Shown here one piece after another: positions 5,809 to 63,908 of a stretch of 64,000 nucleotides of DNA. The notes under the pieces were generated by a model. That model was not told where the DNA came from. It did no database searches and was given only the letters and a program-made list of their open reading frames with translations. The translations under genes and the position numbers were made by a program. The first letter of the stretch is position 1, and every line of letters begins with the position of its first letter. Source of the DNA: an uncultured delta proteobacterium (GTDB lineage Bacteria > Desulfobacterota > Syntrophia > Syntrophales > UBA2185). The stretch covers positions 476,438 to 540,437 of the forward strand of contig OY970063.1 in the NCBI GenBank assembly GCA_963705275.1, in the 5' to 3' direction.

Positions 5809-5835
5809 TGTTAAATCATTCCCTTTCCAAAATAA

Positions 5836-7624: not shown

Positions 7625-7708
7625 ATGCTGTCCCTATAATTAGGCTGCACTTAGGCAGCGTAACTTGCCCTTGGTCTGGGATATGCAATGATTACCGACA
7701 TGAATAAA

Positions 7709-35741: not shown

Positions 35742-36977
35742 TCATTTATCGATATCGATGACAGTTGTGATATCTGCCCTCCCCTCTTTCTTCTTCACCA
35801 GGAAATAGAGCTCCCCTGTTTCCTTAAGGCTGCCCGCCAGCATCTCCGCCCCGCCGCCGGTCCCACAAAACAGATCAACCCGTCCCGGTCCTTTGATAAC
35901 ACCTCCCGTGTCCTGATTGAGAACGAAGCGGGAGAAGGTCTCCCACGATTTGATATTTCCGTCTTTTTCAAAGACAGGCTTCCGCAGCCTGATGAAAGCA
36001 AGAGCGCCTCTCGGGAATAAATCAAGGTCTGTCGCGATTGACCTGCCCGAGGTAAGTGTAAGACCAAGGGCGCCTATGGGGCCGTTTTCGACGATGCGAA
36101 AAAATACATAGCTCTCGTTGTAGTTGAAAATATCCGAGAGCTCTTCGGGATGCTCCCTCAAGTATTTCTTTATAGACTGATGCGTCATCTCACTCTTGGA
36201 GAGCTTGCCTTTATCCAGAAGGTATCGTGCCATTCTATTCGGTCGGCCATTCTTCTGGGCATAACTGACCTGCATGGACCGCCCATCCGTTAATGTTATT
36301 TCTCCCGACCCCTGGATATGCATAAAAAATAAGTCAATGGGATCATTCACCCAGATAAGCTCAAGGTTTCTTCCCTTGAGAACTCCAGATTCTTCAATAT
36401 CGGCCCTATTAAAATAAGGGACCAACTCGCCGCTCTTCAATCTACCTATAATTTTTTCATTCTTGTATTTCTCGCTGAATTTGCCCAAATTGGCAACGAC
36501 GATGTCATCGGGGGTCTTGTAAATCGGATACCTGTATTCATCTGTCCTTTCCAGTGAACCTTTCAAGACAGACTCGAAATATCCCGTGAAAAGCACTCTC
36601 CCCTGATTGTCAAGTCCAGCGGCTCTGTACAAGTCAAATGTATTCAGTATTTTTTCCCGTTTGACTTCGTCCGAATCAGAACCGTTCAGGATTTTTCGAA
36701 AAGCTAGAAGTGACTCTCTTAATTCCCTGCCTGTAATATGGCCATCGCCAATCACGTACATATTATTCCCGGCACTTCTTTCATAGTACTCGATACTTCT
36801 TTCAATCGCCGTGCCCAGTGAATCACCATCCAGATCATCTGCTAAGGGAGGGACTTTATCAGGAGGAATCAATACGAGGGCGGGTGGAATCTTCTCTTGA
36901 GGTCTTCCAATTCCAGCCGCGCAGCCGGCTGCAAAGAAAATAACCAGGAGAAGGCAGAAAATACGAAAGGGTCTCAT
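35742..36977 (-). CDS. mltA: membrane-bound lytic murein transglycosylase A-like lipoprotein
   Basis: The lipoprotein start MRPFRIFCLLLVIFFAAGC is at ATG 36977. The MltA domain is followed by a 3D domain (...SGRSIATDLDLFPRGALAFI...GGVIKGPGRVDLFCG). The longer ORF to 37085 overlaps the upstream gene. Confidence 0.85.
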   Translation of the reverse strand: MRPFRIFCLLLVIFFAAGCAAGIGRPQEKIPPALVLIPPDKVPPLADDLDGDSLGTAIERSIEYYERSAGNNMYVIGDGHITGRELRESLLAFRKILNGSDSDEVKREKILNTFDLYRAAGLDNQGRVLFTGYFESVLKGSLERTDEYRYPIYKTPDDIVVANLGKFSEKYKNEKIIGRLKSGELVPYFNRADIEESGVLKGRNLELIWVNDPIDLFFMHIQGSGEITLTDGRSMQVSYAQKNGRPNRMARYLLDKGKLSKSEMTHQSIKKYLREHPEELSDIFNYNESYVFFRIVENGPIGALGLTLTSGRSIATDLDLFPRGALAFIRLRKPVFEKDGNIKSWETFSRFVLNQDTGGVIKGPGRVDLFCGTGGGAEMLAGSLKETGELYFLVKKKEGRADITTVIDIDK

Positions 36978-36984
36978 GTGCACC

Positions 36985-37443
36985 TTAAAGTTCAGTGACC
37001 ATCGCCACTTCATCGCAGTAGTCCGGATACTTCGAACATCGGAAGCAGTCCGACCAGATCTTCTCGGAGAGGGTCGACCGATCAACCTCTTTAAATCCGA
37101 GACGCTTAAAATAATCCGGCCTGTTTGTAAGCGTAAACATCCTGTAAAAACCCAGGGTAATGGCCTCGGAAATGCATCCCTCTACGAGTTTTTTCGCTAT
37201 TCCCTGCCCTCTATATTTTTCTTCCACATATAGAGAGCGGATCTCCGCCAGATTTTCCCATATTATATTCATTGCGCAGATGCCTGCTACGGCCTTCTCC
37301 TTTTCGTCAAAATAAATGAGGAAATCCCTGAGGCTGCCGTAGATATCCATAAGGGAGCGGGGGAGTATTTCCCCCTTCCCCGATGACAGATTGATCATCC
37401 TGTGGATCGTCTTTACATCACCGACGCGGGCCTTCCTCAGCAT
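36985..37443 (-). CDS. GNAT-family N-acetyltransferase (short ArgA-like)
   Basis: 152 aa. The acetyl-CoA motif is YVEEKYRGQGIAKKLVE. Confidence 0.75.
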   Translation of the reverse strand: MLRKARVGDVKTIHRMINLSSGKGEILPRSLMDIYGSLRDFLIYFDEKEKAVAGICAMNIIWENLAEIRSLYVEEKYRGQGIAKKLVEGCISEAITLGFYRMFTLTNRPDYFKRLGFKEVDRSTLSEKIWSDCFRCSKYPDYCDEVAMVTEL

Positions 37444-42851: not shown

Positions 42852-43235
42852 ATGTTTTACAGGATAGCAGCCGACATGGTGATCTTCATCCATTTCCTGT
42901 GGATAGCCTTTGTCATATTGGGCTTTCCGGTATTACTCTACCTGAATTTTTCCAGATGGAGGGTATTTCATTTACTCGCTTTGATCGCCATGATCGTCAT
43001 GCAATTGACTGAGACTATCTGTCCCCTGACCTACCTTGAAACTTATCTCAAATCTAAAGGTGCATCGAGTCGCGTATACCCCGGCCAGTTCACCATAGAT
43101 ACAATTGAAAAACTGATCTATGTTGAGGATTTGACCCTTGAAAAAATTACACACGCGACAATCATATTTCTTGCTTTGGTCTTGCTCTCATTTTGGTTGA
43201 AGCCTGTCACCTTCAAGAGGCAAACAAGGGGTTAG
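42852..43235 (+). CDS. DUF2784-like small membrane protein
   Basis: 127 aa with 3-4 TM segments. IFIHFLWIAFVILG and the ...CPLTYLE... motif are present. Confidence 0.55.
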   Translation: MFYRIAADMVIFIHFLWIAFVILGFPVLLYLNFSRWRVFHLLALIAMIVMQLTETICPLTYLETYLKSKGASSRVYPGQFTIDTIEKLIYVEDLTLEKITHATIIFLALVLLSFWLKPVTFKRQTRG

Positions 43236-43389: not shown

Positions 43390-44721
43390 ATGAATGAAGA
43401 ACCGACACTCAGAGTGGGCATCCTGCAGGGCTACAGTGAAGTACTAGGAAGGCTAAACGGCCCATTTCTTATCAATGATGCCCTCAGTCTAAGCGGGACG
43501 TTCAGGGCCTATGAACGAGAAGGCCGCATCCTCCTTGCCGATGCTGCGGGACATGAGATAATCCATGAGAAAGAAGTTCGGTGCACCCCCGTCGATGATT
43601 CAACCTTCACCCTCCTCGATGTGATGATCGGTGTGAATTTCCACTGGCAGAGAAAACAGGAACAAACTTTCCGCGGAGAACTGAGGCTCATCCTAGACGA
43701 AAGCGACAAGCTCGTTGCCGTCAATAGAATTCCTTTGGAAGATTATTTATCAAGTGTCGTTTCCTCAGAAATGAATGCTGAAGCGGGGTTGGAATTCCTC
43801 AAGGCCCATGCAATTGCGTCACGTAGCTGGCTTGTGTCCATGCTCGGAATGGCAGGCAAGGCAGTGCACGGAGGAAATGCATCGGCCGGTCCAGACCGGC
43901 AAACTAAAGAGCACATCAGGTATTACCAGAGGGTTGACCACACGCTTTTTGACGTCTGTGCGGACGATCATTGCCAGCGGTATCAGGGCATCAGCCGGCC
44001 AATGTCTGATAACGCCCGGCAGGCAGTTGAGAGAACACGCGGCCTGTTTCTCGTCTACAACAATGAGATCTGCGATGCCCGTTATCATAAAGCCTGCGGC
44101 GGTCTGACGGACAATTTCGCAAATACTTGGGATGGTGTCACCGTCCCATATCTCACGTCCGTCCCGGACTCTGCTGTCCCGTATGATCCGATCCGCACGG
44201 AGGCCGAAGCCAGGAAATGGATTCTGGGAGATCCGGGGGCATATTGCAATACTGAAGACCCCAATGTCCTGCGCAGGATTCTCCCCTCCTTCGATCATGA
44301 AACGGCGGATTTTTTCCGCTGGAAGGTGGCGTATACACGCACAGAACTGGAGGATATCGTCCGGGAAAAATCGGGGGTGGATTTCGGCAATCTCCTCTCT
44401 CTCACTCCGGTTGAACGCGGCCCCTCCGGCCGCATAGTGAGGCTGCAAATCGCAGGATCGAAAAGAACTCTGACCATAGGCAAGGAGCTCGAGATCCGTC
44501 GCTGGCTCTCACGCAGTCATCTTTACAGCAGCGCATTTGTCGTTTGTGCGGAGAATGATAAGTCCGGCCTTCCAGTCCGCTTTATCCTGCATGGCGCCGG
44601 ATGGGGACACGGCGTAGGCTTATGCCAGATAGGGGCAGCCGTAATGGCCATAAAAGGCTTTACGTCAGAATCTATTTTGAAACACTACTATAGTGGTGCG
44701 GAGCTTCAGAAGCTTTACTGA
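43390..44721 (+). CDS. SpoIID/LytB-domain protein lacking any N-terminal signal or anchor
   Basis: ...EDYLSSVVSSEMNAEAGLEFLKAHAIASRSW... and ...GHGVGLCQIGA... are SpoIID/LytB hallmarks. The N-terminus MNEEPTLRVGILQG is hydrophilic. Confidence 0.8.
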   Translation: MNEEPTLRVGILQGYSEVLGRLNGPFLINDALSLSGTFRAYEREGRILLADAAGHEIIHEKEVRCTPVDDSTFTLLDVMIGVNFHWQRKQEQTFRGELRLILDESDKLVAVNRIPLEDYLSSVVSSEMNAEAGLEFLKAHAIASRSWLVSMLGMAGKAVHGGNASAGPDRQTKEHIRYYQRVDHTLFDVCADDHCQRYQGISRPMSDNARQAVERTRGLFLVYNNEICDARYHKACGGLTDNFANTWDGVTVPYLTSVPDSAVPYDPIRTEAEARKWILGDPGAYCNTEDPNVLRRILPSFDHETADFFRWKVAYTRTELEDIVREKSGVDFGNLLSLTPVERGPSGRIVRLQIAGSKRTLTIGKELEIRRWLSRSHLYSSAFVVCAENDKSGLPVRFILHGAGWGHGVGLCQIGAAVMAIKGFTSESILKHYYSGAELQKLY

Positions 44722-44730
44722 AGAAAGGCT

Positions 44731-45453
44731 ATGCGAAAATCACCTATCAGAACTTCTTTCATTCTCGGCGCCGGGCTGGGAACGCGCCTGCGCCCTCTGA
44801 CCGATAACTGCCCGAAACCGCTCCTGCCCGCAGGCGGACGCCCGATGATCACTCATGCAATGGATCATCTTATATCTGCGGGTATAGAACGCTTCATCGT
44901 CAATACCCATTATTTTGCAGAGGCATACCATAAGGCATTCCCGGATCGGCAATGGCGGGGGATTCCAATAATCTTCCGGTATGAACCTGTGCTTCTGGAT
45001 ACAGCGGGGGGCATAAAGAACATAGAAGATCTCCTTGACGGCGACGAAAGGATCCTCGTTTACAATGGCGACACCTTTACGGACCTGCCGCTTACTCATC
45101 TCATCAATGCACACTACGCGATGCGGAAGGAAGTCACCCTGGCTCTGAGAAGCAGTGGTTCTCCTTTGAACGTCAATCTGAACGCACGGGGCGATATATG
45201 TGACCTGCGGCATACACTGGGCGACCGCGGTGTTAAGAGCTGTTTATTTACGGGCATCTATATCGTGGAAAAAGCCTTTCTCCGACGCCTCACAGAGGGC
45301 CGCAAAGAATCGATTGTCCCTGTCCTTGTCGCCATGATCAGGGAAGAACCTGGATCGGTGGCGGGGATAATAATCGATGAAGGTCGCTGGTATGATATCG
45401 GATCTGTGGCGGAATATGAGAGGATAAATTCATTGCTCGCAGGATCGAGGTAA
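44731..45453 (+). CDS. murU: sugar-1-phosphate nucleotidyltransferase, MurU-like
   Basis: ILGAGLGTRLRPLTDNCPKPLL is a nucleotidyltransferase signature. The length is 240 aa and it is adjacent to an AmgK-like kinase. Confidence 0.65.
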   Translation: MRKSPIRTSFILGAGLGTRLRPLTDNCPKPLLPAGGRPMITHAMDHLISAGIERFIVNTHYFAEAYHKAFPDRQWRGIPIIFRYEPVLLDTAGGIKNIEDLLDGDERILVYNGDTFTDLPLTHLINAHYAMRKEVTLALRSSGSPLNVNLNARGDICDLRHTLGDRGVKSCLFTGIYIVEKAFLRRLTEGRKESIVPVLVAMIREEPGSVAGIIIDEGRWYDIGSVAEYERINSLLAGSR

Positions 45454-45593
45454 GAGCGGCCCTTCATTACAAGACCCTTTTGCAGGCCGAGGACTTAACT
45501 TTATACCCGCTGAGATTTCCTTTCGTCAAGCGGGTGTCAGCAACGGAGACCAATTTGGAGGAATGATATCGTAAGGTATCTTAGAAAAGGCCG

Positions 45594-46682
45594 ATGCATC
45601 AAGATGATAAAATGCTCCACTTCGTACGCAAGGCACTGCGGCTTGGGAGATCAGATACCCTGACCATCATGCCTATGGCCAAACGTGGATCAAGCCGGGC
45701 CTTTCAACGAATCAAATATGAAGATCATGGCTCCGTCATTCTTATGTGCTATGACCACGTGCGCAGAGAGAACAACTACTACGCTGCCATTGCCGACTTC
45801 CTCCTGCAGATCCATATCCCCGTCCCGCGCATTCTGGCGCACGACCATCTGATGGGCTTCATCGTCATGGAGGACCTGGGAGATAGAGACCTGTGGTCCT
45901 ATAAGGATGATCCGTGGACAAGAAGGAGTGCATATTACCGCGCGACCCTCTCCATTGCACAGAGACTCCATACCTTTCCCGTCGAAGATTTCCCTTTTGA
46001 TAAAGTCCCTCTGATGGAAGGATTCAGCCTCGACCTTTACCGATGGGAGCGAAATTACTTCATGGACAATTTTGTTCACGCCGTCTGTGGCATCAAACTC
46101 AATCCACGGGAAACAAGAGATTTAGAGGACGAATTGAACGGCTTGTCGGGGCGGCTTGAGGATGCAAAACCCAGCCTTGTGCATAGAGATCTTCAATCGC
46201 AGAATGTGATGATATGCAAGGACCAGCCGGTATTCATAGACTTTCAAGGCATGCGGGTCGGCAATTTTTTTTATGACCTGGGGTCACTGCTCTATGATCC
46301 CTATGTCTCCCTGACGGAGGATGAACGGATGGAGCTGCTCTTTCATTACTACAAACTTCCGGCTTGCGACGGCACAGACACTTTACAAAATGATATATCT
46401 TCGGGCGATAAAGTCGCCAAAGTTAAGCAGGTGAATGCTGATATGCGACAAACGGACTGGACGGTATTTCAGGATAGATTTAGGGACGCGTCGGCACAGC
46501 GCCTCATGCAGGCGCTCGGCGCTTATGGTTTCCTGGGACTGAAGAGTGGTCTTTCAGAATTTCTCACACATATCCCCAAAGGCATTACAAATCTTGCTGA
46601 CAGCGCTGCGCGCGCAAAACAGCTGCCATTGCTTAACGATCTGGCGCTGAAATGTCAGCAGTCTCTCGGACGCAAATCATGA
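45594..46682 (+). CDS. amgK: anomeric sugar kinase of the APH/choline-kinase fold, AmgK-like
   Basis: The Brenner/catalytic motif LVHRDLQSQNVMI and the FIDFQGMRVGNFFYDLGSLLYD motif are present. It is paired with a MurU-like gene. Confidence 0.65.
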   Translation: MHQDDKMLHFVRKALRLGRSDTLTIMPMAKRGSSRAFQRIKYEDHGSVILMCYDHVRRENNYYAAIADFLLQIHIPVPRILAHDHLMGFIVMEDLGDRDLWSYKDDPWTRRSAYYRATLSIAQRLHTFPVEDFPFDKVPLMEGFSLDLYRWERNYFMDNFVHAVCGIKLNPRETRDLEDELNGLSGRLEDAKPSLVHRDLQSQNVMICKDQPVFIDFQGMRVGNFFYDLGSLLYDPYVSLTEDERMELLFHYYKLPACDGTDTLQNDISSGDKVAKVKQVNADMRQTDWTVFQDRFRDASAQRLMQALGAYGFLGLKSGLSEFLTHIPKGITNLADSAARAKQLPLLNDLALKCQQSLGRKS

Positions 46683-46836
46683 GAATGCCATGGACAATCT
46701 TCCCGCGCAGACAGGCGTCCTGATACGGATTGTCTGCTCGCGGGACCGTTTTGAATTCTTTGCCGTTGACATCTAATTGCAATCGTTCTATAAAAAAAGA
46801 GAGAGAACCTCTCGGCAGCACAGGGTAAATCACTAT

Positions 46837-48051
46837 ATGACAACTGAATTGACATATGTAGTTATCACACCATACAGCCTCCTCAAGTCGAGGACCGGCA
46901 ATATCATAGCACGGCTCATGTCTCTCTCCGGCTGCGACCTGGTCGGTATCCGCATGATGCGGCCGTCGGATACGTTTGTAAATGAATATATACGGCGTGT
47001 GAAAAGTTTGAACATCCCCAAGGTGGGCAAGGCGCTCGTCGATTATATCGACCAGAATCTTCGGCCTGAAAATATCTTGAAACAGCAGAATCGCTGTTTG
47101 TTTCTTCTCTTCGAGGGCGCGGACGCTGTCGCGAGAATCTACGACGTTGTCGGTAAACTAACCACTGTGACGGAATCAGAGGCCAATCGCGGAACAATTC
47201 GCGGAACCTACAGCGACTATATCACCACCCCTGACGGAGCTGTCCGGTACTTCGAGCCGGCAGTCCTGTTGCCCACGAACCTTGAATATGCAAAGAACAA
47301 TCTGGAATTTTTCGCAAAGTTTGGATTCAGCGATTCCGGCATCTACGAAGAATGTTCCGAAGGAGAAACAACACTGGTCATCCTGAAGCCCGACAATTTC
47401 TTCAAGCATTCTGTCCGCCCGGGAAATATGATCGACATGTTTTCCAAGACGGGTCTCCGGATTGTCGGCGCCCGGATGATACGTATGAGCGCCGCCCAGG
47501 GCGAGGAGTTCTATGGATTCCTTCGCGACGTTTTCAAGAAGAAGCTGAGGCCACAGATCGTGGCCCATCTTAAACAGGGAATGGAGGGCCTCTTCAATTT
47601 CCAGATAACAGATGACGAATTCAATGCCATGGCTGAAGTCATTAGCGAAAAAAATGCCCTGTACGAATTTTCACAGATCGTAAAATACATGACCGGCCTC
47701 GACCCGAAAGATGTACCGCCGGCAGACCGAGACAAACCCGGGAAACACCTCGCGCTGGCGCTTCTTTACCGCGGCCTTAACGCAGTTGAAATAATACGTG
47801 AACGCCTGGGCGTAACCGATCCCGCAATCGCCGCAGAAGGAACTATCCGTTCCGATTTCGGCCAGAACATTGTGCAGAATGCGGCACATGCATCCGACTC
47901 CGTCGAAAATGCCGTCCGTGAAAGAAAAATCATCGGTCTCTATGACGATGCAGGCGACGACTGCAAGAGAATAATCGAAGACTGGCTGAAGGATGATCGT
48001 GGCAGTTCAATGCCCTTGAAGGAAACAGCGAGAATTCAAAAACAATTTTAA
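46837..48051 (+). CDS. tandem nucleoside-diphosphate-kinase-like protein (degenerate NDK plus catalytic NDK)
   Basis: The second half has TLVILKPDNF..., ...GTIRSDFGQNIVQNAAHASDSVENAVRE (the NxxH.SDS active-site His) and an insertion. The first half is NDK-like (YVVITPYSL..., RGTIRGTYSD) but lacks the His. Start taken at ATG 46837. Confidence 0.7.
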   Translation: MTTELTYVVITPYSLLKSRTGNIIARLMSLSGCDLVGIRMMRPSDTFVNEYIRRVKSLNIPKVGKALVDYIDQNLRPENILKQQNRCLFLLFEGADAVARIYDVVGKLTTVTESEANRGTIRGTYSDYITTPDGAVRYFEPAVLLPTNLEYAKNNLEFFAKFGFSDSGIYEECSEGETTLVILKPDNFFKHSVRPGNMIDMFSKTGLRIVGARMIRMSAAQGEEFYGFLRDVFKKKLRPQIVAHLKQGMEGLFNFQITDDEFNAMAEVISEKNALYEFSQIVKYMTGLDPKDVPPADRDKPGKHLALALLYRGLNAVEIIRERLGVTDPAIAAEGTIRSDFGQNIVQNAAHASDSVENAVRERKIIGLYDDAGDDCKRIIEDWLKDDRGSSMPLKETARIQKQF

Positions 48052-48155
48052 TGAAGGATTGCTTCTCAAGTATCGTGAGCTTTCAGAAGCGACTTAGCTG
48101 AACTCCGGCATGAACTGCCAGTTGCCCCGAAGGGTCTCATGTTGTAATCCTGCCT

Positions 48156-48790
48156 TTAGAAGACCGATGAACTCATTCGCGGGAAATGTAGCGAGCCCCC
48201 AATGCTTTCCAGATGGGCCGTATAAACCTGGCAATCCAAAAACTTAAATTTGAGTCCCTTCAATTTGTAGACCAGATCGATCAACGCCGCCTTTGATGCG
48301 TTGCTCATAAGCGAAAACATAGACTCGCCGAAAAAGCATCGCCCCAGCGATACACCGTAGATGCCGCCGACAAGTTTTTCCTCATGCCAGGCCTCTGCTG
48401 AATGGGCATTCCAAGATCGTGCAGTGTGCACAGTACGCCTCAAGCATGTCATCCGTAATCCAAGTGCCATTCTGTTCTCCTCCGCAATTTCTGACAAGAT
48501 AGAACGACTTCACGAAATTTATGATCGTACGTAATCCGAAAGATCCCTTGCCGTAATACCTTCTTCATGCTTCGGGAGACTCTGAGTTCTTCCAGAAATA
48601 ATACGAATCGCGGGTTGGGAGACCACCAGATGATGGGATCGCCTTCTGAATACCATGGGAAAATGCCCTGGCGGTAAGCCGTCGAGAAGCCTACCGGGCG
48701 AAAGGTCACCACCGATGGCAAGGATACCATTTCCCGATGTCAGCTGCACGGGAGGAAATTTATTTCGTCACCCAGTCGAAAAATCGGCAT
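48156..48790 (-). pseudogene. aat: leucyl/phenylalanyl-tRNA--protein transferase, multiply frameshifted
   Basis: Aat blocks are recovered only by hopping frames: MPIFRLGDEINF / GNGILAIGGDLSP / AYRQGIFPWYSEGDPIIWWSPNPR / [14 protein letters not shown] / LHDLG / [30 protein letters not shown]. Confidence 0.8.
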
Positions 48791-48907
48791 GAGATATTTA
48801 GTGCCAGACTCCCATAGCCCGATGGGCACTGTGAGGCGTTAAGTCATAACTCTGAGGTTTTGAAAAAGAGAATCTGCGCCCGTCGCAAGTGCTAAGTGAC
48901 CTAGGAT

Positions 48908-51183
48908 CTACTCTTCGAGAACCCGCACAGTGACATCATCACCTTCAATGTCCGCAAGAGCAGTGCCGCCTTCTTGCAGCTTCCCGAAAAGCACCTCATC
49001 CACAAAGAATCGTTTTATCTTGTCCTGGATCAGACGGGCAATCTCTCTTGCCCCGAATTCCTGGGAATAGCCTTTACGGGCAAGCCATTCATAACACCGG
49101 TCTGTAACCTTGAGGGTTACATTCTTTCTCCTGCAACTGAACGGAGAATTCACCGATCGCCTTTTTTACGATCATGAGCACTACTTCATGGGTAAGGCCG
49201 TTAAAGTTGACAACCCCATCAAGACGGTTTCTGAATTCAGGCGAAAAGATCCGCTCCACCGCCGTGAATACGGCGTCCCTGATTGACATTCTTGGCCTCA
49301 AATCCGATAATCTGCCTGCCGATCTCCCGCGCACCGGCATTCGATGTCATGAGTATGACTACGTTACGGAAATCTGCCTTCTTTCCGTTGTTGTCCGTCA
49401 GCGTCGCGTAGTCCATCACCTGGAGCAGATGTGTTGAAAATATCGGCATGAGCCTTCTCGATTTCATCAAGGAGCAAGACGGAATGGGGATTCTTTCTGA
49501 TAGCCTCGGTGAGCAGTCCACCTTCTTCGTAACCCACATAGCCCGGCGGCGCCCCCACAAACTTTGCAACGGTGTGCTTTTCCTGATATTCACTCATATC
49601 ATAGCGGTGCAGAGGCACTCCGAGAGTAGTGCAAGCTGTCGCGCAAGTTCGGTCTTTGCCCACACCCGTCGGGCCCACAAACAAGAGGGAGGCAACGGGT
49701 TTGTGAGGTTCACGGAAGCCCTACGCGTGAGCGCTTGATGGCATCCACTACCAGCTCAATCGCTTGATCCTGTCCGAAAATCTTACTCTTGAGGCTTGTC
49801 TCCAGATCCTTCAGCTTGTCCAAGCTCGGATGACGAAACGCTCTTTTCCGGTATTCTGGCTATCTTTGCATCAACCGCTTCGATATTATGAAGATCGACT
49901 ATCTTTTCTACGCCCTCATCGGCATCCTTCATATTAGCCAGAGCGCCGGCTTCATCGATTACATCGATTGCCTTGTCCGGAAGCCTTCGGTCATTGATAT
50001 ATTTGTCAGGATAATTCCGCGGCGCCCGAATGGCCTCTTCGGTATATGACACACGATGATATTCTTCGTATTTGCTTCTTGATACCCTGCAAGTATCTTC
50101 ACTGTATCATCTGTTGTCGGCTCCGATACCTCAATCTTTCTGGAACCTGCGGGAAAGAGCTCCATCCTTCTCAAAATATTTGCGGTATTCGTCGTATGTG
50201 GTGGAGCCGATGCACCGGAGCTTGCCTGAAGCAAGTGCGGGTTTCAGAATATTGGACGCATCCAGCGAACCGCCTGACACAGCCCCGGCGCCGACTATAT
50301 TATGAATCTCGTCGATGAACAGGATTACCTTTTCCTGTCTCTGAAGTTCAGCGATTACGCGTTTCATGCGCTCTTCAAAATCACCCCGAAATCTGGTGCC
50401 GGCAATGATCGCTCCCATATCCAGGGCGTATATCTTCGAATCCTTCAGTCGTTTCGGAACCTTCCCGTCAGCAATGAGCTGCGCCAGCCCTTCGGTTATG
50501 GCCGTTTTCCCAACCCCGGGCTCTCCGACATGGACAGGGTTATTCTTGAATCTTCGGCACAGGACCTGGATAGTCCTCTCAAGAATATCCTCCCGCCCTA
50601 TAAGGGGATCGATCTCTCCTGCTTTCGCCTTGGCAGTCAGTTCTGTCGTGAATGATTTCAGTATCTTGTTTTGCTCAGAATCCTTTTCTTTGGACTCTTG
50701 TTCAGGCTCACTTTCCTCTCGCTTCCTGCCCCGCTTTTGTACTTCCGTAGTTTCGGGAATAACAGAGACGCCGTGAGAGATATAATTGAGCAGGGAAAGT
50801 CGTGTGATGCCTTCTTTCTTGAGGAAAAATGAGGCATAGGACCCCTTTTCATCAAGAATTGAAACTAGAACATCTCCCAGTTCAACAATATCCTTCTGCG
50901 CAGAGGTGGTATGCCATACCGCTCTCTCCAGAACATTTTGAAAACCCAATGACTGGACGGATTGAGCCCCCTCCACAACCGGATTGCCCTCGCGGAGATG
51001 CTTTGCCAACACTCTTTTTAAATGTTCGGGATCGCCGCCGCATCTTTGGATGATGTCAGATCCGTCATCAAAGAAAAGCGCGGCATAGAGAAGGTGCTCA
51101 GGCGTTACGAACTCATGAGACCGCGTATTGGCCTCGGCATATGCGGCCATGATGATTTGATTCAGACTTTCACTTATCTTCAT
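48908..51183 (-). pseudogene. clpA: ATP-dependent Clp protease ATP-binding subunit ClpA; N-terminal ~349 codons in frame, remainder multiply frameshifted
   Basis: It is in frame from ATG 51183 to about 50137 (N-domain, Walker A GEPGVGKT, ...RRFQK). After that, ClpA blocks are scattered over all three frames: [15 protein letters not shown]; [17 protein letters not shown]; KYINDRRLPDKAIDVIDEAGA; IFGQDQAIELVVDAIKRSR; [11 protein letters not shown]; [12 protein letters not shown]...[10 protein letters not shown]; [23 protein letters not shown]; [12 protein letters not shown]; EFGAREIARLIQ. The total length of 2276 nt is about that of a full-length ClpA. Confidence 0.85.
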
Positions 51184-51200
51184 TGTATTCCCCCTGTCGA

Positions 51201-51524
51201 TCAGGCCTCTTCCAATGAGCACTTCAGGGGAAATTCTTTCAGCTTCGCCATCCTATGGACCTGCGCTGCTTTCGTGGCGGCAATATCATAGGTATACACA
51301 CCACATGCCCCGGCCCCTTTCTTATGGACGTCGAGCATTATTTTGGTGGCTTCCGCCGCTGGCTTATGGAACACAAGTATCAGAACTTCGACGACAAATT
51401 CCATTGTCGTATAATGATCATTATGAAGTATGACCCGATACATCTTCGGTTCTTGGAGGACCGTATCGGGATCTAACTTGACATCTCTGTCATCCATTGA
51501 ATCAGGATCACGATATTTCGACAT
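51201..51524 (-). CDS. clpS: ATP-dependent Clp protease adaptor ClpS
   Basis: [21 protein letters not shown]... is the ClpS core. ATG 51524 is preceded by GAGGG. The stop is 17 nt upstream of the clpA start. Confidence 0.9.
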
Positions 51525-52103
51525 ATATCCCTCAAACTGCACATCAGTAGTTTGCCTTCTAGTAAATCTACAACACTAATATAGAACACAGGAGGCTGAC
51601 TGTCAATGTCGTTATTGGGCTCCTGGAAACGCTGTAAACTTGGATAATTAGATATTCAGACAATCTCATGCCTTTTTTTGCGATGACAGGGATGCCCCCT
51701 TTTCATGATATCAGGGTGGTTTCCGTCTATCCGATAATTTTGTATTATATGATAGCCCCCCTATCTGCAAAGCTTCGGATTTTGCGAACTCGCCGCGACA
51801 TAGGGCAAGACCACCAATCTGCCAGATAGGTACTTGAGGGAGATATATTTTGCCTTTGTATCCGTTAATTTCTATGCTAAAAAATCTGAGCCGTTAAATA
51901 TGCTCAACAAATTGAATCCTTCGGTTCTTTTGCTGCAGTGTCCGTACTTGCAACAAGAAACGATGCAGGATATATTTCAGCTATCTAAGATTAGAGCGGC
52001 TTTGCAACTGGTTTGCGAAATAACAAATTAAGCTTAATTGCCCAATCACAGGACAGCATGCATAGCTCGTGTAAAGATAGAATAGGTCTTTAGGGGGTAC
52101 CCG

Positions 52104-53585
52104 ATGAACAAATTGACCGTCGCTCTGCCGTTCAGCTTGCACTCCGGTTTTGAAAAGACGCTCCGACTCTTCCTTCAATCACAGCTGATTGACGAAGTGT
52201 TTATACTCCATGAGGGCGCCTTCAAGCCGCCATGGCCGAAGTGCAAAGTTATAAGAGCATCATCCCTTTCCTCCGGCAGGGTATTGAACAACCTCATAAA
52301 AAGAGTCAGAACGGATTTTCTCATGATGATCGTGGAACCCGAGGAAATGGAGATTCCGCCCGGCACGCTCGACCGTCTTATTGAAGTGGCGGAAAAAACG
52401 GATTCTGGCATGATCTATTCCGACTACCTGGTAAAGGAACAGGGCGACCTTGTTGAACATCCCGTCAATGACTATCAACTGGGAAGCATCCGTGACGAAT
52501 TTGATTTCGGATACTTGATCATGTTCTCTGTATCTGCAATCAGACGTGCATTAAGAAAATACGGCCCCGTACCTGACGTCGTTCATGCAGGATTGTATGA
52601 CCTGCGCTTGAAGGTTTCTGTCGACCAAAGTCTTTTCCATATTCAGGAATTCCTCTACACGAAGAAAGGATCAGACACCGACGCGGACAAAGACAGATCG
52701 AAGCGTGAAAACCATTTTAATTATGTCGATCCGCGTAACCAGGCCGTGCAAAAAGAATTGGAAATGGTTGCAACAGAGCATTTAAAAAATATCGGCGCCT
52801 TCTTGGAACCGCGCTTTAAAAATATGCCTCAACCTCGCTATGATTTCCCCGTTGAGGCAAGTATCATAATTCCCGTCCGCAACCGGGTGGGGACAATTAC
52901 AGATGCGGTGCATAGTGCTTTGACGCAGGAGACTAACTTTCCGTGCAACGTAATTGTTGTGGACAATCATTCCACTGATGGAACCACGCCCCTCCTTACT
53001 GAACTTGCCGGGAGTAATCCTGCTGTGAAGCATGTCATTCCGTCGCGATCTGATCTAACTATCGGCGGTTGCTGGAACGAAGCAATCTTCTCAGAATTCT
53101 GCGGCCGCTATGCCGTACAATTGGACTCGGACGATGTTTATAAGAGCCCCGCGACATTGCAGATGATCATCGACGTTATGAGAAGCGGAGACTTTGCCAT
53201 GGTCATCGGTTCTTATACACTCGTCAATGAAGCGCTGCAGGAGATTCCGCCCGGCATAATCAACCATAAGGAATGGACGGATGACAACGGACGCAACAAT
53301 GCACTGCGCGTAAACGGACTGGGCGCGCCGCGCGCCTTTGATACTGCTCTTCTTCGCAGCTTCCGCTTTCTCAATGTGGGTTACGGAGAAGACTATGCTA
53401 TGGCCCTCCGATTATCGAGAGAATATCGAGTAGGCAGAATTTATGAGAGCCTCTATCTATGCCGGCGGTGGGCAGGCAATACGGACGCTCGCATCTCCAT
53501 TGAGAAGAGTAACCGCCATGATGCGTTTAAAGACAAAATTCGAACTATCGAAATCATGGCTCGTCAGAAGCTGACGGCGAAATGA
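52104..53585 (+). CDS. family 2 glycosyltransferase with an extra N-terminal GT-A-like domain
   Basis: 493 aa. The C-terminal half has IIIPVRNR...NVIVVDNHSTDGT and the DxD-type QLDSDD. The N-terminal ~240 aa is unassigned. GGGGG/SD-like sequence lies upstream. Confidence 0.85.
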   Translation: MNKLTVALPFSLHSGFEKTLRLFLQSQLIDEVFILHEGAFKPPWPKCKVIRASSLSSGRVLNNLIKRVRTDFLMMIVEPEEMEIPPGTLDRLIEVAEKTDSGMIYSDYLVKEQGDLVEHPVNDYQLGSIRDEFDFGYLIMFSVSAIRRALRKYGPVPDVVHAGLYDLRLKVSVDQSLFHIQEFLYTKKGSDTDADKDRSKRENHFNYVDPRNQAVQKELEMVATEHLKNIGAFLEPRFKNMPQPRYDFPVEASIIIPVRNRVGTITDAVHSALTQETNFPCNVIVVDNHSTDGTTPLLTELAGSNPAVKHVIPSRSDLTIGGCWNEAIFSEFCGRYAVQLDSDDVYKSPATLQMIIDVMRSGDFAMVIGSYTLVNEALQEIPPGIINHKEWTDDNGRNNALRVNGLGAPRAFDTALLRSFRFLNVGYGEDYAMALRLSREYRVGRIYESLYLCRRWAGNTDARISIEKSNRHDAFKDKIRTIEIMARQKLTAK

Positions 53586-54592
53586 GGACGAACATGGATC
53601 CCCTCTTGCAGGAAAGAATATCGGCCTCATTTGACGGGAAAGCGCTTGGGCCGTCTCTGTCAGCGCTTTGCCGCAATCTCCTCCAGGAGCAAAAAACCTC
53701 ATGGCGTGATCTTTGTCTGGGATATGAAGCTCTCCGAAGCGTACGGGTAAAGGAACTCCGTTGCAACGGCTTTTCCGTGAGGCTCCATCATAATCCCGCA
53801 AGAATCAAGAGCACTACTGCCCCGGTTGATCAGAAATCCATCGATAAGAGACCTTGTTTTCTCTGTCTCGAAAATCTCCCTGAACCGCAGCGTGGCATCT
53901 TGTATAGGGAGGATTTTATCGTTCTCTGCAATCCCTTTCCCATCTGTCCGGAGCACTATACAATTGCGCACATCGCTCATGGTCCGCAGTCGTTTGAAGG
54001 AATGGTTTCCACATTTCTAAAAATGACAAAGGACTTCAGCCCGGATTTCAATGTGTTTTACAACGGCCCGGAAAGCGGCGCATCCGCACCGGACCACCTG
54101 CACTTTCAGGCGACTCCTCGGGGAATACTGCCGATTGAGAAAGAAATCGTGGATAGGGCAAGACTGGCATTAGTCAAATGTATTCATGCCATTCCTCTTT
54201 TCAGAGCAAAAAATGTGGGGAGGGAAGTTATTATTGTGGAAGGAGAAGATTCCGCTGCAATCGGCGATGCCTTGACAAGCATCGTCTCGGCCATGAAGAG
54301 TGTCCTATCGTCACCGGCAGAACCGCAGATGAATCTGCTCGGCTCATATGAGAAAAACACATGGCGAATCCTAATATTCCCGCGCCGGAGGCATCGCCCC
54401 TCTGTCTACTTTTTGCCGGGCAACGAAAGGATTTTGATCTCGCCGGGACTGGTAGAGATGGGAGGTATCATCGTAACGCCCATAGGAAAAGATTTTGACA
54501 TGGTCGACGAGGAACTGATTAGGAAAATTTACGCGGAAGTCTCAGTCGGCGAAGAAACCATTCAAAAAATACTGGAAGTCCTATCCCTTTGA
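53582..54592 (+). CDS. HIT-superfamily (GalT branch, HxHxQ) nucleotidyl phosphorylase/transferase-like protein, DUF4922-like
   Basis: YNGPESGASAPDHLHFQ matches the NxG..SGAS..HxHxQ signature of Ap4A phosphorylase / GDP-L-galactose phosphorylase-type enzymes. The ATG overlaps the GT2 stop (ATGA). Confidence 0.6.
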   Translation: MRTNMDPLLQERISASFDGKALGPSLSALCRNLLQEQKTSWRDLCLGYEALRSVRVKELRCNGFSVRLHHNPARIKSTTAPVDQKSIDKRPCFLCLENLPEPQRGILYREDFIVLCNPFPICPEHYTIAHIAHGPQSFEGMVSTFLKMTKDFSPDFNVFYNGPESGASAPDHLHFQATPRGILPIEKEIVDRARLALVKCIHAIPLFRAKNVGREVIIVEGEDSAAIGDALTSIVSAMKSVLSSPAEPQMNLLGSYEKNTWRILIFPRRRHRPSVYFLPGNERILISPGLVEMGGIIVTPIGKDFDMVDEELIRKIYAEVSVGEETIQKILEVLSL

Positions 54593-55149
54593 CACTTATG
54601 AACTTGACCGCCATTGTTGACAGCAGGATGACATTTGAGCAGGCCATTGCCGGCACAAGGGCACCCCGCGAGATAATTGGCAAATTATGCCTGGTCGAAG
54701 TGCGCTACCGGGCATTCGACGGCCGATTACACCAGGGACAACTCATCGTTCACCAAGAGGTGAAAACGGACATTATGGAAATTTTTAGCCTGCTTGAGCA
54801 GAGCGCGTTTCCCGTTCATCAGGTTATACCGATCGTGAAGTACGACTGGTCTGATGACCTGTCGATGGCAGACAATAATACATCTGCCTTCAATTACCGA
54901 TTGGTTCTGGGCACCGATAGGTTATCAAACCATGCATTTGGAAAGGCTGTGGATATCAACCCTTATTTGAACCCTGTGATAGATGAGGACGGCCGGATTG
55001 ACCCTCCAGGTGCCAGCTATATTCCCGAGAGGGCAGGAACATTTGGCGATTCACACCCTGTCGTGCAAGAATTCCTGAATCGGGGATGGCGCTGGGGAGG
55101 GCATTTCAGGCCGAAGATAGACTACCACCATTTTGATAAGCCGGCATAG
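54589..55149 (+). CDS. M15-family (LAS) zinc peptidase, VanY/D-Ala-D-Ala carboxypeptidase-like, no signal peptide
   Basis: SNHAFGKAVDINP (SxHxxGxAxD) and the C-terminal DYHHFD are present. The TTG start overlaps the previous stop (TTGA). An in-frame ATG alternative lies at 54598. Confidence 0.75.
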   Translation: MTLMNLTAIVDSRMTFEQAIAGTRAPREIIGKLCLVEVRYRAFDGRLHQGQLIVHQEVKTDIMEIFSLLEQSAFPVHQVIPIVKYDWSDDLSMADNNTSAFNYRLVLGTDRLSNHAFGKAVDINPYLNPVIDEDGRIDPPGASYIPERAGTFGDSHPVVQEFLNRGWRWGGHFRPKIDYHHFDKPA

Positions 55150-55921
55150 CGCGCCCAACCATGATTCCCGCCATCACATTTCTTGTCGAAAGGTACTTAC
55201 TCAGTGTGACGTCGGAGATAACAACTCTTTTCTCCGCTTCCGATGCATGCAGGAGATGAATCCTGCTTCCCAAGCGGACGGCAAGACCGACGTGCATGAC
55301 GTCCAATCCCTTTATGTCCGTAGTAATCGCAATCAAATCCCCATTCTCGGCCATGTCTTCGAACTTTCCTAACGCAGCTTTCGGAATATGATGCAGTATT
55401 CTCCTGGACAGGCGCCTTTCAATGCCCATCATTTCCCGATAAGGTTTCTCCAAGTTCAAGACGGGATATTCTTCCCGATGCCCTGTCATAAAATTAAAAT
55501 TCTTCCGGAATGGTTCCCCACCGGACCTGCAGGTGACATTCTTTAATATCCTTTTTTGCTCGTTGTCATAGAGCCAGTCGGAAAAATAATGGAGACGCGA
55601 GGAATATCCCTTCGTTATGCCGTGGCGGTAACGAATCTTTTTGAGCCGCGCGGCATAGCCCCTGAAATGGGCTTTGCCCCTTCCTATCATCCCTGCCAGG
55701 GCGATAACATTTTCCGCAAAGGTGAAGCAGTCAAATTCTCTTAGATTTATGACGAGGGCCTCCTTCCCCCGCCTTTCAAGCGTGTTGCTCGCGTATGGAA
55801 AACCCAGAAAATACTTTCCCACGCCCAGCATCACCTCGCCGATCGATCTCGCTCCTTCGTCCTTACAAAGGGATCTCACAAGACCATCATAAATGACGCG
55901 ATCTTCAGGCTGATAAATCAC
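55106..55921 (-). CDS. DUF1460-like (N-acetylmuramoyl-L-alanine amidase-like) protein
   Basis: 271 aa. ...GKYFLGFPYASNTLE...LVINLREFDCFTFAENVIAL... is recalled as the DUF1460 pattern. It has no signal peptide, and its start overlaps the upstream gene stop. Confidence 0.55.
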   Translation of the reverse strand: MIYQPEDRVIYDGLVRSLCKDEGARSIGEVMLGVGKYFLGFPYASNTLERRGKEALVINLREFDCFTFAENVIALAGMIGRGKAHFRGYAARLKKIRYRHGITKGYSSRLHYFSDWLYDNEQKRILKNVTCRSGGEPFRKNFNFMTGHREEYPVLNLEKPYREMMGIERRLSRRILHHIPKAALGKFEDMAENGDLIAITTDIKGLDVMHVGLAVRLGSRIHLLHASEAEKRVVISDVTLSKYLSTRNVMAGIMVGRAMPAYQNGGSLSSA

Positions 55922-56769
55922 AATTGGACCTCTGCGCCATCGAACCCTATCGACGCAGCGGAGCCGTCTTCGGGAATCACCAATGACACGAACTTCTTTT
56001 CATCGTATGCAGAACCCGGGTTGATTGATATTAAGGATCCTTTTCTCACAACCTTCTGGTCGTGCGTGTGTCCACATATATGGTATCTGACCTTTGGATG
56101 ATTAAGAAGCATCTCTCCGAGTCTATCGCTTCCCATAAAGGCGTTACAGAAAGTCCACCCGGGAAACGCTTCTCTCATAGTCAGCATTTCGATGAAGCCG
56201 ATATGATGGGTAACGGCGATTATATGTTCTACCTCGGCTTCCAGTCTCTCTATATCCCTCTCCAGCTTTTGGTTAAGTTCACTGGTGTAATCCATATCCG
56301 ATTTGCCAAGGCGCACGAAATGGACATCATTCCAGATAATGTGTCCTCCGAATATTTTCTTTTCATGCGACGATCGCGGAGGCATCTCTCCCGGAGAGAA
56401 GGAATAATCATACCACAGGCAATTGCCCGCAAAACCTATACCGCCGACAATTACGGGCTTCTCATCGAGGAGCATGAATCCGCAGTCCACGATTCTTGAT
56501 TTCAAGATTTCAAGATGACTGGGCGTATCACCTTCGTTGCTCCAGTAGTCATGGTTTCCAAAAACCTTGAGCCTGATGGGCGCCACTTCACTGAAAAGGT
56601 TCAAACATTCTTCCAATCTTGAAGAACCGAGGCCCACCGTGTCACCCGCCAATACAAGCACGTCAGGTTGCTCTCTCTCCAGTCTTCTTATAAAATTCAG
56701 CAATTTATCACGCTCTGCCGCGTTTCTTATCAGGTCGTAATGGATGTCACCGGTTGCTGTAATTTTCAT
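55918..56769 (-). CDS. calcineurin-like metallophosphoesterase
   Basis: The motifs GDIHYD, LAGD, GNHD and GHTH occur in the canonical order. The length is 283 aa. Confidence 0.8.
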   Translation of the reverse strand: MKITATGDIHYDLIRNAAERDKLLNFIRRLEREQPDVLVLAGDTVGLGSSRLEECLNLFSEVAPIRLKVFGNHDYWSNEGDTPSHLEILKSRIVDCGFMLLDEKPVIVGGIGFAGNCLWYDYSFSPGEMPPRSSHEKKIFGGHIIWNDVHFVRLGKSDMDYTSELNQKLERDIERLEAEVEHIIAVTHHIGFIEMLTMREAFPGWTFCNAFMGSDRLGEMLLNHPKVRYHICGHTHDQKVVRKGSLISINPGSAYDEKKFVSLVIPEDGSAASIGFDGAEVQL

Positions 56770-62405: not shown

Positions 62406-62684
62406 TCTTCTTCCTCCTTTCCGTAGTTTTACAGAGTGGATCCGTCCATGTATTTTTTGTACCGAATAAATTTTATTCCTCTTATGGCTGTTTTGCAATT
62501 CATAAAAGACTGATTTACATGTTCTAAATGCCGTAATACCTGCTCAGGGAAAAGCACTTTTTAAGATGAACTGGTAGAGATGCGAGGAAGAATGGCAGCG
62601 TGGAACTTTAGCTTGAAATTTGGTGCGTATAATGTCAGTAGATCGAAAATCTCTTTAGCTCGCTCCTTCTTCAGGATCAGAAAA

Positions 62685-63908
62685 ATGAAATCTTTGGCAA
62701 TGGGCAATGAAAAAAAAATTGTCCTATTTACCTTTACATCGCACTTCCTGTTTCATTTTTACGAACTGGCCTTCCCCGCATTGGCGATCCCTCTCGTCCT
62801 CTCACTGAACATGAACCTTGAAGATGTCTTGAAGCTCGGTTTCCCCATGTACCTCGGCTTCGGCCTCTTCTCCCTGCCATGGGGCCTTTTTGCCGACCGT
62901 TTCGGCAACCGGATCGCTCTCATCATCTGCTTCTTCGGAACCAGCATAGGCTCAATTATGACAGTCCTGGCAACATCTCCGACGCAAATAATGCTATCCC
63001 TGGCTGTGATCGGCATCTTTGCGGGTATTTGTCATCCCGCAGGCATGGGTCTCATCTCCTTAGGCGTAAAGAACCGTGGGATGGCCTTGGGGATCAACGC
63101 CATTGCCGGGAGTATCGGACTTACGGCAGCTCCTTTTCTCGCCGGGTTGCTGAACTGGTTTGCGGGATGGAAGGCCGCGTATCTCGCCGCTGCCGTATTT
63201 GCACTCTTCTGGGGTATTACAATGTTGTTTGCCCGGATCGACGAAACCCCGCTCGTCCATGCGCACGAAAGGGACGCGACTTTCAAGAAAGGCCATGGGT
63301 CTTACCTGCCGTCTCTCATCCTTTTTTTCGCAATCGTGACCCTGGGAGGCCTCGCCTATCGAATAAACATCGTAGTCCTGCCCGCCTACCTCGAATGGAA
63401 GGCATCCTTCCTTTCCGACCTGCTCCATTTCCAGGCCCCGGCGGCGATCACGATGGCGGCCGGCATACTGACGTCTGTTATCTATATTGTCGGGATCGGC
63501 GGTCAGCTATTCGGCGGGAAAATAGCAGACCGCTTTGAACTGCGCCGGCTCTACCTTTTATTCAACATCATCAGCCTTCCCTTTGTCATCATGATGGCAT
63601 ATGGGACAGAGCAGTTCCTTTTCTTTGCCTCTGCTGTTTACGTCTTTTTTGCGTTAGGCATCCAGCCCATTGAAAACAGCCTCATCGCCAAATTTACACC
63701 CCAACGGTGGCGTAGCACCGGCTATGGTTTAGCGTCCGTCTTAATTTTCGGAGTCGGTTCCCTCTCGATCTATCTGGTCGGCTGGGTCAAGGATACATGG
63801 AATCTCGGTTTCGTCTATGCCTTCTCCGGCATCATGATCATCATGATTATAGCGGGTATCGTGCTACTCCTGCGGATGACGCGGGATGTATCTTTTAAGA
63901 ACTTTTGA
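62685..63908 (+). CDS. MFS transporter
   Basis: It has about 12 TM segments. The MFS loop motif GLFADRFGNR is present. The start is uncertain (ATG 62685 or 62700; the ORF is open from 62580). Confidence 0.8.
   Translation: MKSLAMGNEKKIVLFTFTSHFLFHFYELAFPALAIPLVLSLNMNLEDVLKLGFPMYLGFGLFSLPWGLFADRFGNRIALIICFFGTSIGSIMTVLATSPTQIMLSLAVIGIFAGICHPAGMGLISLGVKNRGMALGINAIAGSIGLTAAPFLAGLLNWFAGWKAAYLAAAVFALFWGITMLFARIDETPLVHAHERDATFKKGHGSYLPSLILFFAIVTLGGLAYRINIVVLPAYLEWKASFLSDLLHFQAPAAITMAAGILTSVIYIVGIGGQLFGGKIADRFELRRLYLLFNIISLPFVIMMAYGTEQFLFFASAVYVFFALGIQPIENSLIAKFTPQRWRSTGYGLASVLIFGVGSLSIYLVGWVKDTWNLGFVYAFSGIMIIMIIAGIVLLLRMTRDVSFKNF

Follow-up and report, generated by a model that had tools for sequence, protein, structure and literature searches.

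A conserved gene module with a leaderless SpoIID/LytB-domain protein as a candidate for cytoplasmic salvage of peptidoglycan sugars in a Syntrophales bacterium

The stretch of DNA analyzed here (the window) comprises 64 kb of contig OY970063.1 from an uncultured delta proteobacterium. The source contig measures 2.9 Mb, and the nearest named relatives of the window proteins are encoded in metagenome-assembled genomes of Syntrophales. We examined a cluster of four plus-strand genes at 43390–48051, which a preliminary description had interpreted as a single pathway for the recycling of peptidoglycan sugars. The first gene (43390–44721) encodes a SpoIID/LytB-domain protein of 443 amino acids (aa; PF08486, TIGR02669). 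It is followed by genes for a short, single-domain sugar-1-phosphate nucleotidyltransferase resembling MurU and GMPP (44731–45453, 240 aa, PF00483), an AmgK-like sugar kinase of the APH fold (45594–46682, 362 aa, PF01636), and a tandem protein in which a pseudo-nucleoside diphosphate kinase (NDK) domain precedes an NDK domain (46837–48051, 404 aa, PF00334), the last being a neighbor that is probably outside the system. All four genes were found to be intact and of full length, with the short gaps of 9, 140, and 154 nucleotides (nt) already described, the third being measured to the ATG at 46837. Many full-length homologues were obtained for each of the four proteins, and the gene order repeats in other genomes; given these two findings, the arrangement is not a chance product. 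A second pair of genes, encoding a GT2-family glycosyltransferase and a DUF4922 protein, had been overlooked in the preliminary description and is located 4 kb downstream (52104–54592); the SpoIID-like gene ends 7.4 kb before it.

The SpoIID-like protein scored 170.8 bits against TIGR02669 (cut-off 83.3) and 82.2 bits against PF08486 (cut-off 23), and it remained below the cut-off of the equivalog model for stage II sporulation protein D, TIGR02870 (128.7 bits, cut-off 234.75). An N-terminal beta-rich domain (residues 1–105) precedes the SpoIID catalytic domain, into which about 50 aa are inserted. When the AlphaFold2 model of the protein (mean predicted local distance difference test score, pLDDT, 82.9) was compared to the PDB by Foldseek, solely SpoIID crystal structures were matched, namely 5i1t (TM 0.76, E 8e-15) and 4rwr. 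In SpoIID of Clostridioides difficile, the catalytic residue E101 and the zinc ligands H134, C140, H145, and C146 have been tested experimentally (PMC6221140). These residues correspond to E127 and to H184, C190, H194, and C195 of the window protein, all of which are invariant across 60 homologues. As the catalytic glutamate and the zinc ligands are invariant, catalysis is favored over mere binding or regulation.

The preliminary description had remarked that this protein lacks a hydrophobic N-terminal segment, and the comparison with its homologues fully bore this out: none of the 60 has such a segment within the first 70 residues. The highest 19-residue Kyte-Doolittle mean in this region was 1.34 among all 60 homologues, compared to 2.5–2.6 for the MltA, DUF2784, and DUF218 proteins of the window. 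No longer N-terminus is possible, as the open reading frame (ORF) already uses the first start codon that follows an in-frame stop, and the N-terminal pattern M..EEP.I.VGI is conserved in the 60 homologues. An origin of the start as an annotation or frameshift artefact was thus ruled out.

To follow the gene through other genomes, we performed a family scan on one genome per species, which yielded no fewer than 582 matching stretches, of which the best 80 were kept as species-level loci (given below with the prefix L). The ORFs of each locus were searched with the window proteins, and a gene was counted as a partner if it occurred within 7 kb of the SpoIID-like gene. According to the record titles, the 80 loci originate from Syntrophales, Smithella, other 'Deltaproteobacteria', Ignavibacteria, and Bacteroidota (Bacteroides, Prevotella, Prolixibacteraceae), and the SpoIID-like homologues listed were 56–84% identical to the window protein. 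The gene set is thus shared by three or more bacterial phyla. Partners were present in 67 of the 80 loci, nearly all of them sharing the strand of the SpoIID-like gene. The most frequent was an AmpG-like transporter of the major facilitator superfamily (MFS; 51/80), followed by the combination of GT2 and DUF4922 (45/80), and all three occurred together in 32 loci. Full-length GT2 orthologues (400–650 bits) were located beside the SpoIID-like gene in 46 loci, while the transferase and the APH kinase accompanied it in 14, all of delta type. The MFS neighbors best matched the AmpG family TIGR00901 with 164–181 bits (E 1e-48 to 1e-53), which is under the 350-bit cut-off of this model, yet far ahead of any other family.

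In sister loci, the AmpG-family permease gene lies between the SpoIID-like gene and the transferase/kinase pair, an arrangement that fits a role in the salvage of peptidoglycan fragments. Two loci (L015 and L085) contain complete same-strand operons of six genes, and the order of this conserved module is SpoIID-like protein, AmpG-type permease, sugar-1-phosphate nucleotidyltransferase, APH kinase of the anomeric type, GT2, and DUF4922. The version found in the window is lineage-specific. The connection between the SpoIID-like gene and the transferase/kinase pair, as put forward in the preliminary description, was corroborated by the gene order in the 14 loci, by the first gap of only 9 nt, and by the fusion of transferase and kinase in two loci (L008 and the contig of P0199). 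It had also been proposed that both the SpoIID-like protein and the NDK extend the pathway of this pair; the link to the SpoIID-like gene held, but that to the NDK gene is probably incorrect, as detailed below.

Several partners are covalently joined elsewhere. In 11 loci of Prevotella type by record title (L021, L031, L045, L055, L062, L063, L064, L068, L072, L078, and L080, at about 4400–8330 in each), GT2, DUF4922, and the SpoIID-like domain form a single ORF of 1,234–1,306 aa without a transmembrane (TM) segment. Partial fusions occur in L053, L054, L058, L059, and L066, with DUF4922 fused to the SpoIID-like domain in L053 and GT2 fused to DUF4922 in four loci. The fusion to domains that act on nucleotide substrates is the strongest argument for a cytoplasmic SpoIID-like domain. 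Neither a signal peptide nor a membrane anchor was detected, and the protein is, from its sequence and that of its relatives, very likely cytoplasmic. To our knowledge, all characterized SpoIID/LytB proteins are extracytoplasmic, and the window protein has an N-terminal beta-rich domain in addition; both points would agree with a protein that is exported by a non-classical route and works beyond the membrane, or with a non-catalytic protein that binds muropeptides or has a regulatory function. We consider this improbable, as it is opposed by the lack of a signal or anchor in all 60 homologues, by the TM-free fusions to GT2 and to HIT-fold domains with nucleotide substrates, and by the invariant catalytic glutamate and zinc ligands. 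The protein rather looks like an active enzyme in an unexpected compartment.

The second block of the window starts with the GT2 gene (52104–53585, plus strand, 493 aa, PF00535), whose product has a GT-A domain with a DSD motif at residues 253–395 and an N-terminal region of 250 aa without an assigned domain. The genes for the DUF4922 protein (53582–54592, plus strand, 336 aa, PF16269 with 179 bits) and for a leaderless Peptidase_M15_4, a candidate stem-peptide peptidase (54589–55149, plus strand, 186 aa, PF13539), follow with overlaps of 4 nt at each junction. These three genes converge on two minus-strand genes, encoding a leaderless AmiA-like protein, putatively a MurNAc-L-Ala amidase (MurNAc, N-acetylmuramic acid; 55106–55921, 271 aa, PF07313 with 159 bits), and a calcineurin-like metallophosphoesterase whose membership is uncertain (55918–56769, 283 aa, PF00149; TIGR03729 with 92 bits, below the cut-off). 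No hydrophobic segment was found in either the peptidase or the amidase. Between the GT2 side and the SpoIID-like, transferase, and kinase genes lie the NDK gene and an aat-clpA-clpS block in inverted orientation, and the overall layout is the same in the relatives L081 and L084. In L084, the M15_4 gene holds the equivalent position, and the amidase gene is likewise kept in place with the metallophosphoesterase gene beside it; in L008, an M15_4 gene directly precedes the SpoIID-like gene.

The DUF4922 protein contains the motif DHLHFQ, in which H172 and H174 are invariant, and its orthologues are matched by PF26216 (GDPGP1_C). A sequence search of the protein against the PDB gave no match, and NCBIfam holds no model for the DUF4922, M15_4, AmiA-like, or DUF2784 proteins. 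With the AlphaFold2 model (pLDDT 91), the top Foldseek matches were the yeast Ap4A phosphorylase Apa2 (E 7e-12), DUF4931, and GalT. The GalT/Apa2 branch of the HIT fold catalyzes nucleotidyl transfer with phosphate or a sugar phosphate as acceptor, and the modeled structure places the DUF4922 protein in this branch as a predicted nucleotidyl transferase or phosphorylase. It has the fold and the HxHxQ motif in common with the GalT/Apa2/GDP-sugar phosphorylase branch; however, no sequence match to the solved members was detectable, and elsewhere it is fused to GT2, SpoIID-like, or GNAT domains. Fusions of a GNAT acetyltransferase to DUF4922 were observed in L085 (8001–9494) and also in P0321 and P0337. 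They recall the pairing of acetyltransferase and uridylyltransferase in GlmU, which hints at an N-acetyl-hexosamine-1-phosphate substrate.

AmgK (anomeric kinase for MurNAc and N-acetylglucosamine, GlcNAc) and MurU (MurNAc-alpha-1-phosphate uridylyltransferase) constitute the recycling bypass of Pseudomonas. The preliminary description had assigned these two identities to the kinase/transferase pair and had suggested comparison by hidden Markov models, which we carried out. For the kinase, the best NCBIfam family was AmgK, although with 69.2 bits against a cut-off of 550 for NF045759 (NF045698, 32.7 bits against 500); the next family other than AmgK reached 23 bits, and the sole sequence match in the PDB was the unannotated APH protein 3csv. 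The best NCBIfam match of the transferase was MurU (NF045761) with 126.3 bits against a cut-off of 250, close to the 118.4 bits obtained with the model for mycobacterial mannose-1-phosphate guanylyltransferase. Both proteins fall far under the equivalog cut-offs, and the assignment as such was not sustained. The same applies to the view that the transferase is closer to MurU than to enzymes of other specificity. Searched against the PDB, its sequence gave a tie between MurU (4y7t, 67 bits) and GDP-mannose pyrophosphorylase (7whr, 68 bits), and with a family profile built from nine members, GDP-mannose and UDP-glucose pyrophosphorylases (UGPase 8x7s, 89 bits; GMPP 7d72, 87.5 bits; 7whr, 86 bits) ranked above the MurU structures (4y7t, 70 bits; 8hhd, 62 bits). 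Residue determinants specific for MurNAc are not given in the MurU paper PMC12346966.

The architecture and context of the pair nevertheless resemble the AmgK/MurU type. The transferase has the minimal single-domain form of MurU (about 230 aa, lacking the C-terminal beta-helix domain) and aligns end to end with 4y7t (231 aa) and 8hhd (239 aa). The kinase has the APH fold and adjoins, or is fused to, a short sugar-1-phosphate nucleotidyltransferase, as is typical of AmgK, and its gene always follows the transferase gene in related loci. Elsewhere the two genes are 0–13 nt apart, overlapping, or fused; the spacer in the window (45454–45593) measures 140 nt, and those of the nearest relatives 125 and 220 nt. 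It includes a 7-bp inverted repeat (ACCCGCT...AGCGGGT) without a T-run, which is partly kept in L002. Assignment as an anomeric kinase/nucleotidyltransferase salvage pair is well supported, while the odds that the two proteins are isofunctional with AmgK and MurU are about even. A role in amino-sugar metabolism is suggested by the context, in which an AmpG neighbor, a SpoIID fold, and genes for a peptidase and an amidase occur, together with the short architecture of MurU type.

The protein encoded by the fourth gene of the cluster is matched by PF00334 in three stretches (106.9 bits) and as a whole falls under the cut-off of NF001908 (109 against 155 bits). Domain 1 is degenerate, with the lysine replaced by threonine and no histidine motif, whereas domain 2 is complete (K, Y, R, N, and the catalytic histidine in NAAHASDS) and is extended by an internal insert of some 50 residues. 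Such a tandem of a degenerate and a complete domain is unusual in bacteria. Upstream of the gene, a sigma-70-like promoter element, TTGACA-17 nt-TATAAA, was read from the sequence at 46766–46794 (plus strand). Five relatives show TTGACA without any change and also keep a -10 element of TATA type, with a mean column identity of only 36% in the remaining spacer. An alternative TTG start at 46777 would be possible, but it is located inside the promoter-like element, and the orthologues measure 404–405 aa.

The preliminary description had taken all four genes as one pathway in which the tandem NDK would replenish UTP on site for the MurU-like enzyme, and had expected the four to be linked in other genomes. 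Order and strand of the four genes are indeed kept in L002, L081, L082, L083, L084, and the contig of P0199, and transferase, GT2, and DUF4922 would all use or release nucleoside tri- or diphosphates. However, in these close Syntrophales relatives the unrelated flanks are equally syntenic, with aat-clpA-clpS downstream and nadK-recN(-MltA) upstream, so that the adjacency of the NDK gene reflects general synteny. In none of about 13 more distant loci that contain the transferase/kinase pair was the NDK present within the locus, and a tandem NDK occurred within 7 kb of the SpoIID-like gene in only one of the 80 loci. The gene has its own conserved promoter-like element, and the spacer between kinase and NDK extends up to 475 nt in L082. 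In addition, the NDK family is 74–100% identical across Syntrophales, more conserved than the salvage genes and reminiscent of housekeeping genes. Linkage of the four genes was thus found in close relatives but not beyond them, and we consider participation of the NDK in the pathway to be very unlikely; from these sequence features, its gene is probably a separately transcribed bystander.

The closest known case, as judged by analogy of gene order, is an operon of Tannerella forsythia (Tanf_08345–08385), which comprises genes for a xanthan lyase, gtf, gtf, lytB, ampG, namZ1, murT, murK, and murQ, is co-transcribed and controlled by GppX, and has been described as also encoding protein-glycosylation enzymes (PMC5388701). 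Its gtf-gtf-lytB-ampG order equals the GT2-DUF4922-SpoIID-like-AmpG order of many Bacteroidota loci in our set. The AmpG protein of T. forsythia has been shown experimentally to import GlcNAc-MurNAc and GlcNAc-anhydro-MurNAc (anhMurNAc), and this MurNAc auxotroph grows on GlcNAc-anhMurNAc, even though for AnmK 'no AnmK ortholog ... is predicted' and the path taken after import 'remains to be explored' (PMC7670621). TfLytB has been referred to as 'a putative lytic transglycosylase' and the functions of the gtf genes as 'unknown', with no location stated, in a 2021 preprint, the most recent T. forsythia paper found (10.1101/2021.12.02.470905). The window differs from this operon in that the genes are arranged in two blocks, the kinase/transferase pair is attached directly, and AmpG is missing from the window; GT2 and DUF4922 are present near the SpoIID-like gene.

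The reported relation of this operon to protein glycosylation (PMC5388701) is one of several observations that would suit a module unrelated to peptidoglycan salvage, in which another sugar (e.g., a hexose or heptose) is activated, the GT2 and GT4 enzymes assemble or modify some other glycan or glycoconjugate, and its product or a precursor is transported by the MFS protein. The GT2 and GT4 glycosyltransferases are conserved partners, and the transferase profile is nearest to GDP-mannose and UDP-glucose pyrophosphorylases. We regard this explanation as unlikely, since a SpoIID fold with an intact active site is known only to act on the glycan of peptidoglycan, the MFS protein has AmpG as its best family, with the T. 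forsythia AmpG being experimentally a muropeptide importer (PMC7670621), the nearest family of the kinase is AmgK, and genes for an M15_4 peptidase and an AmiA-like amidase are co-located.

Taken together, we favor with some reserve the reading that the genes at 43390–46682 encode a three-enzyme cytoplasmic unit that would salvage a sugar derived from peptidoglycan, as a split, permease-less form of the conserved six-gene module. What was directly observed is the gene content with its conservation and fusions, the catalytic motifs, and the absence of export signals, and from these we infer the substrates and reactions of the module as follows. GlcNAc-MurNAc or GlcNAc-anhMurNAc, with or without peptides, would enter by an AmpG-type permease encoded elsewhere in the source genome, and the AmiA-like amidase and the M15_4 peptidase would remove the peptide. 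The SpoIID-fold enzyme would then transform the glycosidic or 1,6-anhydro bond of MurNAc in the cytoplasm to give a reducing amino sugar. This sugar would be phosphorylated at C1 by the APH-fold kinase, and the transferase would turn the resulting sugar-1-phosphate into an NDP-sugar (UDP-MurNAc or UDP-GlcNAc) for wall synthesis. GT2 and the GalT/Apa2-fold DUF4922 protein may handle the partner sugar or an exchange of nucleotidyl and phosphate groups.

Several points weigh against this reading. The main caveat is that an imported disaccharide offers a lytic transglycosylase no obvious bond to cut, and the reaction assigned to the SpoIID-like protein is for this reason a conjecture. The GT2 enzyme, and GT4 in Ignavibacteria, could equally well be consistent with a biosynthetic role. 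The transferase resembles GMPP and UGPase at least as closely as it does MurU, and both it and the kinase score far below the MurU and AmgK equivalog cut-offs. Membership of TfLytB in the leaderless family is suggested by analogy in gene order. Finally, no AmpG-type gene was found in the 64-kb window when four AmpG-like neighbor proteins were searched against all ORFs by phmmer; the MFS gene at 62580–63908 is not of AmpG type. Directly upstream of the SpoIID-like gene, the window has a gene for a small DUF2784 membrane protein with a hydrophobic segment (42852–43235, plus strand, 127 aa, PF10861). Its membership is uncertain, but it occupies this position in the AmpG-less loci (the window, L001, L002, L081, L082, and L083), and the protein may serve there as a replacement membrane partner.

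The most appealing specific version of the salvage reading would have the SpoIID-fold enzyme reverse the lytic-transglycosylase reaction, so that the 1,6-anhydro bond of anhMurNAc sugars imported by AmpG is opened or transferred without ATP and AnmK (plus MupP) is replaced. The AmgK-like kinase and the nucleotidyltransferase would then make the UDP-sugar within the six-gene operon, and the partner sugar would be regained by GT2 and DUF4922 through nucleotidyl or phosphorolytic reactions. We hold this proposal to be doubtful; if true, it would account for the growth of Tannerella forsythia and other bacteria without AnmK on GlcNAc-anhMurNAc.

Compared to the AmgK-MurU bypass of Pseudomonas putida and P. 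aeruginosa, which also occurs in T. forsythia, the system described here likewise combines an APH-fold kinase with a short nucleotidyltransferase, sometimes fused, and AmgK and MurU are the best NCBIfam families, but far below their cut-offs. In our loci the transferase precedes the kinase, and an AmpG-type permease accompanies the pair in sister loci. While the described bypass lacks a SpoIID-fold enzyme, GT2, and DUF4922, the window pair is embedded among these. With E. coli-type recycling (AmpG, NagZ, AmpD, LdcA, AnmK, MurQ), the module would share the logic of import by AmpG, after which the peptide is taken off and the sugar processed in the cytoplasm. However, NagZ, AmpD, AnmK, and MurQ are all outside the module, and other folds (AmiA-like, M15_4, SpoIID-like, GT2, and DUF4922) occupy the corresponding steps. 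SpoIID of Bacillus and Clostridioides has the fold and the catalytic glutamate in common with the window protein, whose zinc site is of the C. difficile type. Unlike these proteins, the window protein has neither anchor nor signal, possesses an extra N-terminal domain and the insert of about 50 aa, and belongs to a family of non-sporulating Gram-negative lineages with a cytoplasmic gene context. In the full-text literature, we found no characterization of a cytoplasmic SpoIID/LytB protein, of bacterial DUF4922, of an AnmK-independent enzyme that opens anhMurNAc, or of the Bacteroides homologues; PMC10756304 and PMC13041923 deal with other systems.

Most of the present understanding of peptidoglycan recycling comes from work on E. 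coli (NagZ/AmpD/AnmK/MurQ) and Pseudomonas (AmgK/MurU), and we know of no account of how imported muropeptides are processed in Bacteroidota, Ignavibacteria, or syntrophic 'Deltaproteobacteria'. The finding is larger than first reported, as it concerns a widespread, uncharacterized cytoplasmic module that would salvage peptidoglycan fragments, and the gene set points to an undescribed cytoplasmic route for the re-use of cell-wall sugars. The SpoIID fold, GT2, DUF4922, M15_4, and the AmiA-like protein represent concrete conserved candidates with homologues in hundreds of species, and the AnmK-less use of anhydro-MurNAc by T. forsythia, posed as an explicit open question (PMC7670621), becomes testable. 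If the proposed role is confirmed, a fold thought to be strictly extracytoplasmic would move into the cytoplasm, DUF4922 would gain a function, and a third type of wall-sugar salvage would be added, with relevance to Bacteroidota of the gut and the mouth as well as to muropeptide signals released to the host.

Some loci showed variations in the neighborhood of the SpoIID-like gene. The loci of Ignavibacteria type (L026, L033, L040, L046, L050, L056, L067, and L073) contain no AmpG gene within 7 kb; in most of them, a gene encoding 375 aa directly follows the SpoIID-like gene, and GT2-DUF4922 is located about 1.7 kb beyond. The 375-aa gene is annotated as a GT4 glycosyltransferase in L073 (about 8349–9476). 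In the Parabacteroides locus L052 (4916–9798), genes for an OPT oligopeptide transporter and a sodium:solute symporter flank the SpoIID-like gene instead of AmpG. The extra flanking genes in L013, L052, L073, and L010 gave no additional conserved partner.

With regard to other elements of the window, a scan of the entire 64 kb against Rfam returned no family. A terminator and promoter scan of 41.3–48.6 kb yielded counts at chance level, with no plus-strand terminator between the genes. In the minus-strand block at 48100–51222, aat (Leu/Phe-tRNA protein transferase) is broken over two and clpA over three reading frames, while clpS (51201–51542) is intact. The orthologues in L081 and L084 are intact (aat, 230 or 206 aa; clpA, 772 or 759 aa), and the breaks are either indel errors of long-read assembly or genuine pseudogenes. 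Further envelope or peptidoglycan genes of the window encode MltA with a hydrophobic N-terminus (35742–37085, minus strand), a 'Germane' domain protein (9778–10401, minus strand), and a LysM protein (11947–13605, plus strand).

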